NCBI RefSeq assembly: GCF_013315695.1
Contig: NZ_CP054353.1
DNA length: 64,000 bases
Source: Escherichia coli
GTDB taxonomy: Bacteria > Pseudomonadota > Gammaproteobacteria > Enterobacterales > Enterobacteriaceae
Reading direction: 5' to 3' (one strand)
The notes beneath the pieces are model-generated. The model did not search any database and was not told the DNA's origin. It saw nothing but the letters and a program-made list of their open reading frames with translations. Every line of letters starts with the position of its first letter. Positions within the stretch are counted from its first letter, which is position 1. Both the position numbers and the translations under genes were made by a program. Of this stretch, positions 12 to 7,107 are shown piece by piece.

Positions 12-1067
12 TTAACCAATTTTGACGGTAACAAATTTGCGAATATCTGCCGGAACCGGCTGCGGTGCGCTGTGCGTCTGCACGTACTCAATCGCCGGAT
101 CGCCGTCCTCAATCCAGTTTTTCGGGTAAAACATGTTTTGCGTTGCGCCCGTTCTTACCGCTTCCTGTTCCAGGATCGCACCATAGGCCACCAGCCCTTT
201 ATTGTTGGTGTTGCCCAGGACCAGCAAATCAGGCTCAAGGAAATATTTTTCTGTGCCGTCGCTGTCAGTGTATTTGCCGGAATAGACGATAAGGGCCAGA
301 TCACCAAGATAGCCTTTAAAGCTCACCACTTCGCCCAGGTTTTTACATGCCAGCTCTGCGGCGGATTCTGAACCACGGGAGAGATCGTACAGTTCACGGA
401 ATTTTTTAAAGCTGCGTAACATGCGCCATACATCAACGCCCATAATCATGACGTTTGCGGGGCAACCTGCCTGATCTGCGTATAGCTCAATGTCATAGAT
501 TGGGTCGTGTATGTCTTTGTCCTGCTCTGACCATTTTTTACCGTCGGCCTGCTCTATGATGTTTTTTTCCGGTATCTTCCAGTCGATTTCATAGCGCTCT
601 ATGCCTTCGCCCTCAATGATGTTTTTTCCGGTCGTTACCGCATTTACCGCCAGCCATTCCACGCGCGCTTTAATGGCGTTTATCTGGCGGCGCATGTTGC
701 CAGTAATCAGGCGCATACGGCGGTAGGTAGGGTCGTTAAGCTGTGCTGGATCTTCTCCAGCCATGCGCATTATTGTTTTTAATGGATCGATTTCGTGTTT
801 TGGCTTCATGTAGCCAGGGCGAATAATGCTTGTTTCGTACCCTTTATCGCGCTGAACCTGGCTACCCACCATAGGCGAACAAAACGCCGACATAGTGACT
901 TCTTCAATATCCAGGTTATCTAACATGATGTCCTGTGTGTTGAATGTCGCCACGTTCGGGAAAAACAGCGCGGTAAACAGCGGACTGAATTTAAATTCCG
1001 CAATATCCTCGCGATTCAGGTACGCAAAAAGCTGGTTAGTGTTAAGTGCTATTGCTTTTACTGTCAT
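12..1067 (-). CDS. Major capsid protein, lambda gpE-like family
   Basis: A 351-aa ORF whose length and sequence character fit the phage major capsid protein E family. Its start overlaps the stop of the upstream small ORF, and it lies in a separately promoted operon. Confidence 0.75.
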   Translation of the reverse strand: MTVKAIALNTNQLFAYLNREDIAEFKFSPLFTALFFPNVATFNTQDIMLDNLDIEEVTMSAFCSPMVGSQVQRDKGYETSIIRPGYMKPKHEIDPLKTIMRMAGEDPAQLNDPTYRRMRLITGNMRRQINAIKARVEWLAVNAVTTGKNIIEGEGIERYEIDWKIPEKNIIEQADGKKWSEQDKDIHDPIYDIELYADQAGCPANVMIMGVDVWRMLRSFKKFRELYDLSRGSESAAELACKNLGEVVSFKGYLGDLALIVYSGKYTDSDGTEKYFLEPDLLVLGNTNNKGLVAYGAILEQEAVRTGATQNMFYPKNWIEDGDPAIEYVQTHSAPQPVPADIRKFVTVKIG

Positions 1068-2815: not shown

Positions 2816-4954
2816 TTAATCTTCATCATCAGGCTGGAACATCAGCACGTAAAAAACATGCTGCTTACCCCCAATCTTGCCCAGCGCCTTTTTTTTGTAT
2901 CGGCGATCGCTTCCCTTCTCCAGCATTCCGGCAGCATCCAGGGCACGCGCAAAATGCGCCGGATTAAATCCCTTCGCTATCTCACTCTCAAACACGTGCG
3001 GGAACGTGTAATAGCGCATCTCGTCATCTTCGTTGCGAATGCTCCCTTTTCTGTATCCGGCAAGCTCTTTAATCGGTAAATCACGCTCATCTGTATTGGG
3101 GTACGGAAGGTAGCGGCTAAACCCAAACGACGACAAAAACGCCTCAGCCTGTTCAACCATCTGTTTAAATTCCCTGTTACCCGTGCCGAACTCCTTCACC
3201 CAGGCATTAAAGTTATGCTGTATCGCGTCGCGGCATTCCTGCACGACCCAGCCAGTTACATGACCGGAAAGCACAAGCGCGGCCTCCAGTATGGCGAAAC
3301 GTTCACCCACGCGGTGGACCTGCTCGCCGTAGCTCTCCGGTATCAGGTTGCGCCACCGTTCGCGGCATTCCCTTACCGTATCCTTTGCCTCCTGCTGGTG
3401 GCCTGCCAGCCATTTAACCCACTCACGACCCGCCGCCCCGTGATTTGCTGTCCAGGCATCCTTTAACGCGTCAGCATGTTCCTTACCGTTGCTGTATTCG
3501 TGAAATTTCGTGGCTTTTTCCATCGGAACGTTAAGCAGTCGGACAAGCTGCCCCGCCTTAACTTTTATCCCCTCACTTTTGAGGAATGTCTCAACGTCCA
3601 TTTCTCCGGTGCTGATTGCCACCGTTCGCCAGTGTTTGATCTCCCTGTTGCCGCCATCCTTCGCCCCCTGCAATTTCCCTGAACCGTTAAACAGCGTATA
3701 AGCAGACGTTGACACTTCCCGCGCATTTCCGGCCTGGCCTATCTCATCCAGTGGTAAAAGCCCGTCATTATGGGCCTCGGCCTCATTGGCAATACCTAAC
3801 GCCGTGCCGTACCAGGTCAGCCGCTGCGCGTCCGGCTCTCCCCATAAACTTGATGCGATGTTCTGCGTGGTGGTCTTACCTGCCGATGACTGTTCGAAAA
3901 GATGCACCCCGAAGCCGTCAGCACCCACAAGGCCAATTAAAGGCGCTGCCAGTGACGTTGCCACACCCAGCATCATTGAGGCATTACCGCCAGCCAGCCG
4001 CGCCACACTCTCGCGCCAGCCCTCCGCCGTACCCGCCACGGAATAACCGTTAATCGCGGCGCTTTTTCCGGTAAACAGGATCGGTTTTTCAGAATCACCA
4101 ATGATCGAACCGTCCGGCATGATGTACGCGCCAAAATGCCAGCCCGTTGTTGTGCTTAACTGCCATTCCTCATGGCTTCCGCTTAACTGCATCCAGTCCG
4201 CCAGGATTGCCCTGTATTTGCCGTTGGTTGTCACGTTCAGCCCGTGATCTTTAAGTAACCGCCAGCCGTCACGGTCGCCGATACCACCACACGGGATCGC
4301 CATTGTGATGACTTCATGATTTGCTAATTTTTTCCAGCGCATGACGCGGTAATGCTCTTTACCGATCGTCCCCGTTCCCAGTAGTTCAAGCGGAGAACAT
4401 AACCACGTCTCAGGCCGGATAATTTCGCCTGACTGCTTATCCACTTTGGGCGTTACCCAGAAAACACCATCGGCGCGACTTTCAACGCGTGGCTTTAATT
4501 CGTCATCGCTATGGCTTCCGGTATCTTTTTTCTTTACCGGAAACTCAATAACCAGACCATCAGAAAGATTCTGCCGCTCACGGGCCAGATATTCGCGCCA
4601 GTTCTCCACCTCCTGACCGTGCATTCCATCAGGGTAAAAATTTGCATCCTGTACGCCTGCCGCCGCCAGCTTCTGACCAATCGCCTTGATCATTACTGGC
4701 TCAAGATGTCCGGCCCTGAATATGCGTACTGATTTTCGGCCTTCCGGCACAATTTGCAGCTTATCCAGTTCGGCAAGTTGTTGCTCTCCAAGCCAGACAG
4801 GAGGCACGTTATCGCCAGCCAGTCGCCCGTCCTGTTCCTGCCACTGTTTCGCATGTGCCCAGGCATCACTACCCGCAAAAATGATGACTTCCGTCATTTT
4901 GTCACGTGGCTGGTGTTTTAAATTTGGCGCTTTTTTCATTTCTGCTCTCTCCAC
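2816..4954 (-). CDS. Satellite replication protein: primase/helicase (TOPRIM-like N-terminus plus DUF927-type P-loop domain)
   Basis: A 712-aa ORF with Walker A SSAGKTTT and a Walker B-like LLPLDEIG. It has the size and position typical of P4-alpha/PICI Pri-Rep proteins. Confidence 0.75.
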   Translation of the reverse strand: MERAEMKKAPNLKHQPRDKMTEVIIFAGSDAWAHAKQWQEQDGRLAGDNVPPVWLGEQQLAELDKLQIVPEGRKSVRIFRAGHLEPVMIKAIGQKLAAAGVQDANFYPDGMHGQEVENWREYLARERQNLSDGLVIEFPVKKKDTGSHSDDELKPRVESRADGVFWVTPKVDKQSGEIIRPETWLCSPLELLGTGTIGKEHYRVMRWKKLANHEVITMAIPCGGIGDRDGWRLLKDHGLNVTTNGKYRAILADWMQLSGSHEEWQLSTTTGWHFGAYIMPDGSIIGDSEKPILFTGKSAAINGYSVAGTAEGWRESVARLAGGNASMMLGVATSLAAPLIGLVGADGFGVHLFEQSSAGKTTTQNIASSLWGEPDAQRLTWYGTALGIANEAEAHNDGLLPLDEIGQAGNAREVSTSAYTLFNGSGKLQGAKDGGNREIKHWRTVAISTGEMDVETFLKSEGIKVKAGQLVRLLNVPMEKATKFHEYSNGKEHADALKDAWTANHGAAGREWVKWLAGHQQEAKDTVRECRERWRNLIPESYGEQVHRVGERFAILEAALVLSGHVTGWVVQECRDAIQHNFNAWVKEFGTGNREFKQMVEQAEAFLSSFGFSRYLPYPNTDERDLPIKELAGYRKGSIRNEDDEMRYYTFPHVFESEIAKGFNPAHFARALDAAGMLEKGSDRRYKKKALGKIGGKQHVFYVLMFQPDDED

Positions 4955-5235
4955 GCGGCAATCATGTTTTTCAGTTCCTGTAGTTTTTTATCCACATCCA
5001 CACGTGACACATGGTTATTTCTGGAAGTCGGGATTTCCCGCCTGAATCTGCTAATAAAGATCTCCACGTTCAGCGAACTATGAAATGAATAGCCATCACG
5101 AATAAAATACACACGGTCAAACATCAGTTCTTTTACCGTTACTCTGTTGCCGTTCTTATCCAGATAAATAGCGCCGGGGATAATTTTGGGGTGTGCATAA
5201 CCGCTGGCAGTCAAGCCAGATAAATATGTTCTCAT
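4936..5235 (-). CDS. Hypothetical 99-aa protein
   Basis: An ORF in the same operon whose end overlaps the primase start. No family recognised. Confidence 0.5.
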   Translation of the reverse strand: MRTYLSGLTASGYAHPKIIPGAIYLDKNGNRVTVKELMFDRVYFIRDGYSFHSSLNVEIFISRFRREIPTSRNNHVSRVDVDKKLQELKNMIAAWREQK

Positions 5236-5241
5236 GATTAT

Positions 5242-5562
5242 TTATCCCCGATTTGAATCAGTATTCGCTTTCTTTATAGCATTTAATGCATTTGTGGCAT
5301 TTTCAATGGTGCACCGTAACGAAATATCAAACTGCCCAAGCATTGCCAGTAACAAACCGATATTACCCATATCAATGCGCATGGCCTTTTCGTCATATTC
5401 CTCATTTTCTGACGCATACCACATCAGGCTACCAATTGACGCAATACCCATTGATATATTGTCAGTAGCCCCATCCGCAGCGGAATAAACTTTTTTAGCA
5501 ATATCATGCTCACAGTTAAAATGCGGATTAATCAGGTACTGGTAATTGGTCATGTCAGGCAT
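5242..5562 (-). CDS. Hypothetical 106-aa protein
   Basis: An ORF tightly packed between its neighbours. No family recognised. Confidence 0.5.
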   Translation of the reverse strand: MPDMTNYQYLINPHFNCEHDIAKKVYSAADGATDNISMGIASIGSLMWYASENEEYDEKAMRIDMGNIGLLLAMLGQFDISLRCTIENATNALNAIKKANTDSNRG

Positions 5563-5758
5563 GGCACACCCCCTGACGAATACGGGCGGCGAATACCATC
5601 ACGCAGCCAGCCGGGGATTGCTGGCGTGCTTCCTGTTCGCTGCTGGCCTCAATGGTAATCACGCGCGGTTGTGCCGTGCTCAGGGCGATAAAACGCCAGA
5701 TGTATTTATTCAGGTTGTGCGAGTCCCGCCCTTGCGGGTGTGTGGTATGATTTAACAT
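5555..5758 (-). CDS. Small 67-aa protein, possibly Icd-like (cell-division inhibitor family often annotated in P4-like islands)
   Basis: Only the C-terminal 67 codons (from the ATG at 5758) of the 335-aa track ORF are plausible. The pattern IWRF..A..(n)EQEAR..(n)VFAARI resembles Icd-like proteins, but I assign this from memory only. Confidence 0.35.
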   Translation of the reverse strand: MLNHTTHPQGRDSHNLNKYIWRFIALSTAQPRVITIEASSEQEARQQSPAGCVMVFAARIRQGVCHA

Positions 5759-5839
5759 AGCTACCTCGATACTGTTGCTATCGTTGGTTGTTAGACGCCC
5801 TGCATGTGTTGCGAGCACTGCGGGGCGTTGCTCTTTCAG

Positions 5840-5885
5840 GTGTATTTCACCTTTGCTTTTTAATTTACTCACTGGTGAAATACAC
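5840..5885. promoter_or_regulatory. 12-bp perfect inverted repeat GTGTATTTCACC / GGTGAAATACAC separated by 22 bp, in the divergent control region
   Basis: Seen directly in the sequence. It lies between the leftward early operon (start 5758) and the rightward RHH gene (start 5952). Confidence 0.4.
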
Positions 5886-5951
5886 TTCAAGCCTTTTTTT
5901 ATCATTTTTTTTGCGTATACTGACATACACCAATTTTTAGGAGATCCAGAA

Positions 5952-6131
5952 ATGGCAACTGGTGCAAAGAACGCAAAATCACAAATGACAACTGTCAGAA
6001 TCCCACATGAAGTAATGGATGATATTGAGCAACTTAAAGAACCTGGCGAAAGTACCGCTGGTTTTTTAGTTACTGCCGCAAAAGGCGAGATCAAACGCCG
6101 CCAGCGCCGCAAGGCCAAAGAATCAGAATAA
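5952..6131 (+). CDS. Ribbon-helix-helix (CopG/Arc-like) small DNA-binding protein, 59 aa
   Basis: An AGGAG Shine-Dalgarno lies upstream. TTVRIPHEVMDDIEQL fits the RHH beta-strand plus helix pattern, and the tail is basic. Confidence 0.45.
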   Translation: MATGAKNAKSQMTTVRIPHEVMDDIEQLKEPGESTAGFLVTAAKGEIKRRQRRKAKESE

Positions 6132-6188
6132 TCACTATCAGCGCCGTGGCGTGAGGTACTCCGGCGCATTGCTTTACAGGTCAGTACT

Positions 6189-6398
6189 ATGAGCAAAAAA
6201 CACCGATCAGCAGATGAGATTTTTGCAGAACAACGAAGATTGCTTTTGCAAAGTATCATTTCACGCCAGCAAGAGAAGGCGCGAGCTAAACAAATGCCAC
6301 CAAATACAGAACCAGCGCCTACAAGATTTGCGCTTGATGATTTTCTCGATAAACACCCCAGGGTAATGAAAGCAAACAAAAACCGCCCACCAGCCTGA
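6189..6398 (+). CDS. Hypothetical 69-aa basic protein
   Basis: An ORF following the RHH gene on the same strand, ended by the terminator at 6442-6469. Confidence 0.4.
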   Translation: MSKKHRSADEIFAEQRRLLLQSIISRQQEKARAKQMPPNTEPAPTRFALDDFLDKHPRVMKANKNRPPA

Positions 6399-6441
6399 TA
6401 GCGGCTATCATCCCCGTGCTTATGTTTAGTGTTTCCAAACT

Positions 6442-6469
6442 GGCGACCTCCCAAGGTCGCCTTTTTTTT
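6442..6469 (+). terminator. Rho-independent terminator
   Basis: The stem GGCGACC/GGTCGCC is followed by T8. Confidence 0.65.
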
Positions 6470-6488
6470 ATGTGCCATTGTCACCACC

Positions 6489-6698
6489 TCAAGCGGCCTT
6501 GCCTGAATTAATGCGTTCGCGGTTTTTGACCCACGCCACAACCTCAGACTTAACCCAGCCAACAGAACGACCGCCGAGACTGATACGGGAGGGGAAGCGG
6601 CCCTGCTTTTCCATCTCGTAACGAGTTGTGCGGCAAACGCCTGTTAGCTCTCTGCATTCTTTTTCGCGGATTACGCGATCTTCATTTATTTCACGCAT
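6489..6698 (-). CDS. alpA: AlpA-family (MerR-like HTH) prophage/satellite regulator, 69 aa
   Basis: MREINEDRVIREKECRELTGVCRTTRYEMEKQGRFP has the typical AlpA HTH. It lies next to the integrase on the same strand. Confidence 0.75.
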   Translation of the reverse strand: MREINEDRVIREKECRELTGVCRTTRYEMEKQGRFPSRISLGGRSVGWVKSEVVAWVKNRERINSGKAA

Positions 6699-7107
6699 AC
6701 AAAAACCTACATAAAAATTACGTATATAAACTTTTCTCTTAGCTGTAGATATATGAGATCGGATATTACTTAGATTCTTTTTCACCTCTTAAATTAAAAA
6801 CACAACCATGCTAAAGGCTTTGTTCGCTAAGGTTCGTAGAAGCTCGTTAGTGTTTAAAATCGTGTCACGAGTTTTTAAGCGACGCAACAAAAAATGTCGT
6901 TATTTGGCATGACACCTGAATTACCTCATTAAAAACAAATAGATAAACCATCAGGTGTTGGAACAATCAAGAAACAGAGAATAAGAACTAAGAAGAAGAC
7001 ATTTCAAATTTTTTCAATACTTGACACATATAAATCGTCGATATTTGCCGATATTCGACGATTTATTTTAGAGGGCCATTTTTCGCAAGAAAAACAGCCG
7101 TAATTTG

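Follow-up and report, generated by a model that had tools for sequence, protein, structure and literature searches.

Layout of the control region

The stretch analyzed here, hereafter the window, comprises 64,000 nucleotides of Escherichia coli DNA (contig NZ_CP054353.1), and its first 8.4 kb are the right end of a phage satellite of the phage-inducible chromosomal island (PICI) type, which adjoins yljB/cspD/macB in the Escherichia chromosome. We focused on the control region of this island, where the leftward early operon, headed by kil, lies back to back with ylcI, a rightward gene encoding a candidate repressor of 59 amino acids (aa). The initial annotation had described a 59-aa gene, a 69-aa open reading frame (ORF), a terminator and an exact 12-bp inverted repeat, arranged as a module that faces the early/replication operon. 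All four elements were found where they had been placed, the leftward operon indeed begins with kil (5555-5758), and alpA is convergent. The features of the region, with SD denoting a Shine-Dalgarno sequence, are:

5555-5758, minus strand: kil/icd-like gene, 67 aa, first gene of the early operon and homologue of P4 Kil (NF033153 phage_ICD_like, E 2e-19)
5555-6478, minus strand: frame of 307 codons in the position of P4 Eta, running from ATG 6478 antisense through orf69, ylcI and the promoter region and in frame into kil
5757-5838, plus strand: two-hairpin RNA element, antisense to the kil leader, SD and start codon; presumed 5' end
5767-5771 paired with 5779-5783, plus strand: RNA hairpin H1
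5794-5829, plus strand: RNA hairpin H2, followed by GCTCTTTC
5840-5850: O1, candidate operator GTGTATTTCAC, at about +5 to +16 of the putative P_L; exact reverse complement of O2
5862-5890, minus strand: P_L, putative leftward sigma-70 promoter (TTGAAG 5890-5885, 17 nt, TAAATT 5867-5862)
5875-5885: O2, candidate operator GTGAAATACAC, filling the -35/-10 spacer of the putative P_L
5916-5921, plus strand: TATACT, -10 hexamer of P_R, the putative ylcI promoter
5920-5930: O3, candidate operator CTGACATACAC, overlapping the -10 and start site of the putative ylcI promoter
5952-6131, plus strand: ylcI, encoding a 59-aa ribbon-helix-helix (RHH) protein of the YlcI/YnfO family, candidate repressor (ATG 5952, stop 6129-6131)
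6189-6398, plus strand: orf69, encoding a basic helical protein of 69 aa with a net charge of about +7
6442-6469, plus strand: intrinsic terminator of the rightward unit (8-bp stem 6442-6461 with 6 GC pairs, then T8)
6489-6698, minus strand: alpA, homologue of P4 vis, convergent with the rightward unit (Phage_AlpA, E 6e-16)

The ylcI product was assigned to its family by the NCBIfam model NF041551 (YlcI/YnfO), which matched with 64 bits (cut-off 30, E 9e-18) over profile positions 1-42 of 42, and the NCBI annotation pipeline (PGAP) gives homologues the same name. In agreement with the fold proposed initially, its structure model is a confident ribbon-helix-helix with an N-terminal strand and two helices. 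Members of the RHH superfamily carry a G-x-S/T/N turn where helix 2 begins; at this position YlcI has G32-E33-S34, and E33 and S34 are invariant in an alignment of 23 sequences. An N-terminal arm (MATGxKNxKS) and a tail (GEIKRRQR) are invariant as well, and there is no C-terminal toxin-binding extension. In Pfam, YlcI met with nothing but noise below the threshold, and DUF3950 went undetected; a sequence search of the PDB and a tblastn search of 50,697 phage records gave no match, and PADLOC matched neither YlcI nor orf69, Kil or orf106. PHROGs lists the YlcI/YnfO family as having unknown function. The family is small: of 1.84 billion cluster representatives, 91 match at E <= 0.001, and its range is limited to Enterobacterales, Gilliamella and Pasteurellaceae. 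Within the coding sequence of ylcI (6043-6061, GESTAGFL codons) there is a terminator-like hairpin with T6 behind it, probably by coincidence.

The comparative analysis rests on 78 loci with a YlcI relative, taken from one genome per species, to which further E. coli loci were added. The order of a leftward primase-to-kil operon, a divergent ylcI, and a leftward alpA and int is kept in the 78 loci, which range from Escherichia to Xenorhabdus, Gilliamella and one Pasteurellaceae genome. In the search of one genome per species the nearest ylcI locus was that of E. ruysiae, and the allele group of the window matches 348 of 5426 complete E. coli genomes, so the module is widespread and not peculiar to this island. 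Closely related islands at the same E. coli site are annotated alike by PGAP.

Candidate operators and their pairing with YlcI

The spacer between kil and ylcI measures 193 bp (5759-5951) and contains the perfect 12-bp inverted repeat GTGTATTTCACC (5840-5851) / GGTGAAATACAC (5874-5885), with 22 nt between the arms. An arm of this length was reached in none of 1000 shuffles of the spacer, in which the longest arm averaged 5.9, and only seven such 12-bp inverted repeats occur in the window. The repeat turned out to consist of two of three 11-bp copies of the pattern GTG-N5-CAC, and the exact 11-mer is absent elsewhere in the 64 kb. The copies O1 and O2 are inverted in the lineage of the window and direct repeats in most others, which makes the inversion itself incidental. 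The initial reading of the repeat as an operator thus holds in its core, as the sites track the sequence of YlcI (see below), but it had missed the third copy and had relied on an inversion that is not essential.

Alignment of the upstream regions on the ylcI ATG revealed a rigid common scaffold, in which O2 is fixed at -77 in nearly all loci and O3 at -32, with the lineage-specific core of O1/O2 shared in most loci; the lineage-specific O1 copy lies between -99 and -113 in more than 60 loci. The three copies within one locus have an identical 5-nt core, and between lineages this core varies, giving about 17 classes across 85 loci. Each class pairs with one version of the YlcI beta-strand, and the pairings recur across genera: SQMTTVRIP occurs with the core AAATA (GTGAAATACAC), SQQLNARFP with AATCG (GTGAATCGCAC), SKKLEARVP with TCAGC (GTGTCAGCCAC), SLQVSVRLP with AACAC (GTGAACACCAC) and SQ(A/S)LK(A/S)RVP with TGGCC. 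When parts of the protein were used to predict operator identity, the beta-strand reached an area under the curve (AUC) of 0.98, followed by the C-terminal half (0.90) and helix A (0.87), whereas the DNA between and beside the sites reached only 0.55-0.59. Simple linkage does not account for this pattern, because the directly adjacent DNA predicts so much less than the beta-strand.

Two pairs of loci illustrate the point. The locus L002 occupies the same att site as the island in the window, its Kil, DUF4222 and Int proteins are 93%, 97% and 99% identical, and the control regions and the 3' ends of ylcI align almost base for base; the differences are the three 5-nt cores and about codons 5-38 of ylcI. 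Conversely, L003 has an AlpA of only 35% and an Int of only 26% identity to those of the window, yet carries the same ylcI and the same cores. No further operator copies were found within +/-4 kb in the loci examined, except two one-mismatch chance matches, and there were none at att, at ori or in the alpA region. A 9-of-11 match at the alpA start (6684-6694) was set aside, as such matches are at chance level (18 found, 15.6 expected).

The sites coincide with conserved promoter-like sequences. A TTGA(C/A)G hexamer, 17-18 nt and a TAnnnT hexamer surround O2 in about 36 of 38 non-redundant loci; the last G of the first hexamer is the first base of O2, and O1 abuts or follows the -10 element of P_L. 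On the other strand, TATACT is found at -36 to -31 from the ylcI ATG in 27 of the 38 loci, with near-variants in the rest, and the SD of ylcI (GGAG) precedes its ATG by 8-11 nt. With O2 in the -35/-10 spacer, O1 at the P_L -10 and O3 on the ylcI -10, the geometry would fit a repressor of the leftward promoter that also regulates its own gene. Taken together, the sequence comparisons strongly support the view that YlcI and the GTG-N5-CAC sites form a repressor-operator pair.

Three other explanations of the sites were considered. The repeats might be bound by another protein, such as AlpA, a host factor or the protein encoded by the long leftward frame, and co-vary with ylcI by proximity alone. 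O3 lies 20 nt from the ylcI ATG and is hence tightly linked to it; nevertheless, we regard this as quite unlikely, given that the scaffold next to the sites is such a poor predictor compared with the beta-strand. Moreover, AlpA (81% in both cases, each to the group of the other), Kil and Int are common to the window and L002 while their cores and the N-terminal halves of YlcI differ, L003 has the same cores despite its distant AlpA, and the protein sequence of the antisense frame is poorly conserved. It is also conceivable that YlcI binds the sites but mainly activates or autoregulates the rightward unit, or aids excision or replication, with silencing of the early operon not its main role. 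P_R has no -35 element, O2 lies about 45-50 bp upstream of the likely P_R start, a position typical of an activator, and some RHH proteins, e.g. AmrZ, do activate. The placement of O2 within, and O1 just after, a conserved and near-consensus P_L is, however, classic repressor geometry, and the absence of sites from att, ori and the alpA region argues against an accessory role, so that we consider this option unlikely, too, if a little less so. Finally, the inverted repeat could act as a nucleic-acid hairpin, i.e. an attenuator or terminator, instead of as protein sites. The repeat is perfect in the window, and a scan called a small terminator-like hairpin at 5838-5852; but the direct repeats of most lineages cannot pair, a third copy lies 35-45 bp further on, and the cores change without compensation between the arms, which leaves this explanation with hardly any probability.

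The plus-strand RNA, the leftward frame and orf69

Between kil and O1, two hairpins are present in every lineage, and their stems vary by compensatory change. The consensus has 18 base pairs, of which 14 show double changes, with 98% of cells paired, and none of 500 shuffles matched this. G.U pairs numbered 84 when the RNA was read on the plus strand and 2 on the minus strand; this asymmetry places the RNA on the plus strand, and it also led us to reject the hairpin 5794-5829 as an operon-strand element resembling CI/seqA. With a covariance model, 5748-5843 (plus strand, 72.8 bits) was the only site found in the window, and held-out loci were matched as well, including loci with another 59-aa protein in place of YlcI; the model did not match P4 or DLP12. 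The fold energy of the 84-nt sequence from the window is -34.4 kcal/mol (z = -3.2). Searches of Rfam with 4500-8600 (E up to 1) and 5540-5960 (E up to 10) yielded no credible family and neither C4 nor isrK. The loop of H1 contains an anti-SD sequence in most loci, and H2, with the T-rich tract behind it, resembles an intrinsic terminator at the end of a rightward RNA. As candidate promoter elements of this RNA, the window offers TGGTATGAT (5743-5751) and the other loci TAnnnT, in each case inside kil codons.

In the E. coli islands L081, L082 and L085 (about 2764-2943), a different 59-aa protein (VSTHKSERRGNPPFQFRLDPDL...) occupies the position of ylcI and is accompanied by palindromes of its own (GTGTAATTACAC). 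The plus-strand RNA and an orf69 homologue are nonetheless present there, which suggests that the candidate repressor has been exchanged as a module in some E. coli islands.

On the minus strand, the frame that ends as kil is open for 335 codons (6562-5555), and the spacer and both rightward genes lie antisense within it. The spacer is therefore present as described but is more than a non-coding interval, being part of an open frame that relatives keep open. Within this frame, ATG 6478 lies 10 nt past the alpA TGA and is preceded by the SD sequence GAGGTGG. For comparison we used 47 upstream regions with pairwise identities of no more than 80%. Over the 200 nt upstream of ylcI, the kil-phase frame is free of stops in 40 of the 47 loci, while each of the other two minus-strand frames is stop-free in none, and the stop counts are 28 versus 259 and 271; openness at this level is not due to chance. 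The open stretch continues through and past ylcI, and wherever alpA adjoins, it reaches the alpA stop. The terminator at 6442-6469 is a poor one in the leftward direction, where only AGTTTGG follows the hairpin.

What appears to be selected in this frame is its openness and not its amino-acid sequence. Neither Phage_ASH nor any other Pfam domain was detected on the 335-aa frame of the window, although P4 Eta and the corresponding frames of L082 and L084 do match, and a true Ash/Bro-type protein was rejected here for lack of a domain and because the substitutions are non-conservative. Among 20 diverse alleles, the sense frame of ylcI has a median ratio of nonsynonymous to synonymous substitution rates (dN/dS) of 0.22 and a mean BLOSUM62 score of +0.03, compared to 0.36 and -1.02 for the frame antisense to it, and the SD, ATG and length of ylcI are conserved across loci. 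As judged from these substitution patterns, ylcI is a real gene. As a consequence of the conserved open frame, genomes disagree in how the Icd-like gene is annotated: it is called with 63-67 aa, 105 aa or 429 aa, or as a "pseudogene" opposite the gap between ylcI and alpA (e.g. L001 7575-7854, L086 2221-2538, L084 2025-3314). A weak terminator-like hairpin with GCGGTTTTTG lies on the minus strand at 6387-6404, inside the read-through frame; if functional, it would be expected to be suppressed by translation of the leftward frame.

The second rightward gene, orf69, had been proposed as the partner of the RHH protein. It is probably a real gene. Its homologues form five protein clusters, all from E. 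coli, with 55-97% identity and an in-frame insertion of 9 aa in one, and its sense dN/dS (0.17-0.41; antisense 0.28-0.69) is the lower value in four pairs out of six, the remaining two being about equal. The structure model consists of one long helix and a short one and was too uninformative for a fold search; Pfam, NCBIfam, PHROGs and PADLOC gave no family, toxin or defence match. None of the 80 loci searched has a homologue, and the only holders were loci fetched with the orf69 sequence itself. In L007, L031, L064 and L065, ylcI and alpA are about 80 nt apart, which leaves no room for a second gene, and orf69 homologues also follow the unrelated 59-aa protein in L081 and L085. We conclude that orf69 is a variable accessory gene limited to E. 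coli, a passenger rather than a partner. Across loci, the slot between ylcI and alpA varies in length, from these ~80 nt up to over 1.5 kb, and can contain Bro-type genes.

These data bear on two further explanations. According to the one, ylcI and orf69 work as a functional two-gene unit, either a pair resembling a toxin-antitoxin module, as the initial annotation had offered as an alternative, or a repressor with an obligate co-factor. The distribution of orf69, the loci without space for it and its association with an unrelated protein speak against such a unit; likewise, no toxin or defence family was matched, YlcI lacks the C-terminal toxin-binding region, and a conserved, co-inherited toxin is missing, so that the toxin-antitoxin idea was dropped and the two-gene unit as a whole appears very improbable. 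According to the other, the functional protein would be encoded by the long leftward frame, and ylcI, not being a real gene, would be the shadow of that frame. The leftward frame is conserved as open, and gene callers and PGAP sometimes annotate it. In opposition to this stand the stronger constraint on the ylcI sense frame, its conserved SD, ATG and length, the confident RHH model and the absence of a Pfam domain from the antisense protein, and we give this explanation almost no weight.

Proposed control circuit and relation to known systems

We propose that the region is a P4-type two-promoter control region of a PICI satellite at cspD, with immunity provided by a small protein together with an antisense RNA; on balance, we consider this fairly likely. 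In this scheme, a YlcI dimer would bind the three 11-bp GTG-N5-CAC sites, the variable beta-strand reading the variable 5-nt core, and the invariant MATGxKNxKS arm or GEIKRRQR tail reading the invariant GTG/CAC flanks. Occupancy of O1 and O2 would shut off P_L and thus the kil-orf106-DUF4222-primase operon, and occupancy of O3 would limit expression of ylcI. Any translation of kil from leaky transcripts would be blocked by the ~80-nt rightward RNA, which is complementary to the leader, SD and AUG of kil. Upon induction, a helper phage would trigger alpA, AlpA would activate its own promoter, and the transcript would continue leftward past a terminator that acts on rightward transcription only. 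Ribosomes loading at ATG 6478 would translate the strand opposite to orf69, ylcI and the operators and continue into kil, and this translation, as with P4 eta, may keep both termination and the antisense RNA from acting on the transcript. Read-through of this kind would express the replication genes despite repressor and antisense RNA, and the convergent transcription would in addition lower ylcI expression.

Several observations weigh against this proposal. The Foldseek comparison of the YlcI model with the PDB was not significant. P_L and P_R are consensus matches only, neither of which was called under the stricter rule of our scan, and P_R has no recognisable -35. The orientation of O1/O2 depends on the lineage, which would be unusual for a fixed cooperative complex, though the sites are pseudo-palindromic, and the covariation counts are inflated by shared descent among the loci. 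The promoter of the RNA is weak or uncertain and lies in coding sequence, so that for this element only the 3' hairpin and the strand are well supported. In addition, the open frame is broken in 7 of the 47 non-redundant loci, and protection of read-through could therefore not be universal.

A broader claim is that Gram-negative PICIs, including capsid-forming PICIs (cf-PICIs) and those embedded in helper phages, share an immunity system that has escaped recognition: a 59-aa RHH repressor of about 17 specificity classes that are interchangeable, plus a cis-antisense RNA, with the repressor gene antisense in a frame selected for openness that enables AlpA-driven read-through to override it. We put this forward tentatively, as something nearly but not quite as probable as its opposite. 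The PICI literature describes control by AlpA alone; AlpA is known to activate its own expression and to induce PICIs, and the existence of a repressor has been called unclear (PMC6092414). Work on cf-PICIs tests only alpA, and we found no link between PICIs and RHH proteins in the literature searched. The YlcI module thus offers a concrete candidate for the repressor of Gram-negative PICIs, an open point since 2018 (PMC6092414), and suggests for the first time what the uncharacterised YlcI/YnfO family may do. Specificity classes would explain how related islands coexist in one genome without cross-talk, and the module could help when PICIs are engineered as delivery vehicles. The information is densely overlapping, with a repressor gene, operators, two putative promoters and an antisense RNA inside an open frame of the opposite strand; if the proposal is true, a gene and its own bypass route are written on opposite strands of the same DNA.

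The remainder of this part of the island contains, from left to right:

12-1067, minus strand: lambda-E-like capsid gene
to the right of the capsid gene: gene for a single-stranded DNA-binding protein (SSB)
2816-4954, leftward: DUF927 primase
leftward, in the early operon: DUF4222 gene
leftward, between the DUF4222 gene and kil: 106-aa ORF (orf106)
7108-8346, minus strand: tyrosine integrase

At the junctions 5555-5562, 5235-5242 and 4936-4954, start and stop codons overlap between kil and orf106 and between the DUF4222 gene and the primase gene, and orf106 and the DUF4222 gene are 6 nt apart. These overlaps and the short gap suggest that the early operon is translationally coupled, consistent with control via translation of its first gene. 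Another perfect 12-bp inverted repeat, ATAAATCGTCGA / TCGACGATTTAT (7030-7066, arms 13 nt apart), is found between the int stop and alpA and precedes a promoter-like site on the minus strand (TTGAAA 7007, 18 nt, TATTCT 6978) by about 25 nt; it could be an AlpA site, an Int site or the int terminator. Two perfect 14-bp inverted repeats are located between capsid-proximal genes (1301-1332, 1435-1473), and a PerC-family-like ORF (1528-1896) overlaps the SSB region in the late/accessory part of the island. In E. coli O157:H7 F3113 (L089, 8551-11347), a ylcI plus Icd-like module is found in a satellite inside a prophage terminase gene, i.e. a helper-embedded PICI, where ylcI is separated from the AlpA-type gene by a BRO-N gene.

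Each component has precedents, be it repressors of the RHH type, nested read-through frames or antisense RNAs acting in cis; what is new is their combination, with the candidate repressor gene antisense in its own proposed bypass frame. The closest counterpart is the left operon of P4 (P_LL - vis - eta/kil - P_LE - CI RNA). There, a constitutive promoter lies inside eta, with Kil as the truncated product (Mageeney et al. 2023, PMC10111431), and translation of Eta prevents termination, so that transcripts from the upstream promoter read through and are insensitive to immunity (PMC10111431). In the P4 record, the 199-codon eta starts on the vis stop (the ATG overlaps), encodes Phage_ASH and Icd-like domains and ends as the 65-aa Kil, i.e. 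the last 65 aa of Eta, which match the same NF033153 model as the window's Kil (E 2e-21). The island in the window likewise has a long frame directly after alpA/vis, starting at the alpA end, with a putative internal promoter of the constitutive type, and the frame has Kil as its in-frame C-terminal end, a 65-67-aa Kil/Icd-like protein ahead of the primase operon; the putative P_L would be the equivalent of P4 P_LE. Unlike in P4, the frame of the window has no Phage_ASH match, no C4/CI or isrK RNA is matched at E up to 10, and the conserved RNA is on the opposite strand. P4, in turn, has no ylcI-like gene on the opposite strand, and neither an opposite-strand gene nor DUF3950 is mentioned in PMC10111431. 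We propose that in the window a protein repressor gene and an opposite-strand RNA take the place of the CI/seqA RNA immunity of P4.

Other systems share single components. Type II antitoxins of the RHH class (CopA_SO, HicB, TacA, ParD) resemble YlcI in fold and in autoregulation via repeated sites, which in our case is a proposal, but the YlcI module has no conserved adjacent toxin and no toxin-binding extension. K-12 YlcI (DLP12) and YnfO (Qin), listed under DUF3950, fall into the same NCBIfam family as the YlcI of the window, and the divergent subgroup, to which K-12 YlcI belongs, shares the IRFP...NFSAWVI motifs. In contrast to the window, K-12 ylcI (L088, DLP12, 6252-6446; subgroup motif IRFP...NFSAWVIEAC) is divergent from nohD near cos in a lambdoid remnant and is accompanied by neither kil nor alpA nor a GTG-N5-CAC triplet, which gives the family a second context in lambdoid prophages. 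The literature searched reports no function for K-12 YlcI/YnfO and has YlcI/YnfO only as a name in one gene table. The immI region of P22 combines the RHH repressors Arc and Mnt with the sar antisense RNA; it regulates an antirepressor and not a replication operon, and to our knowledge it has no read-through frame antisense to the repressor gene.

In Gram-positive PICIs (SaPIs), a divergent master repressor beside int silences the replication operon (PMC6092414). The position and proposed role of ylcI are like those of these repressors, Stl and Rpr. Stl and Rpr are larger helix-turn-helix proteins, whose repression is lifted by binding a helper-phage protein. The candidate described here is, by contrast, an RHH protein of 59 aa, and the bypass that we propose for it is AlpA-driven read-through.

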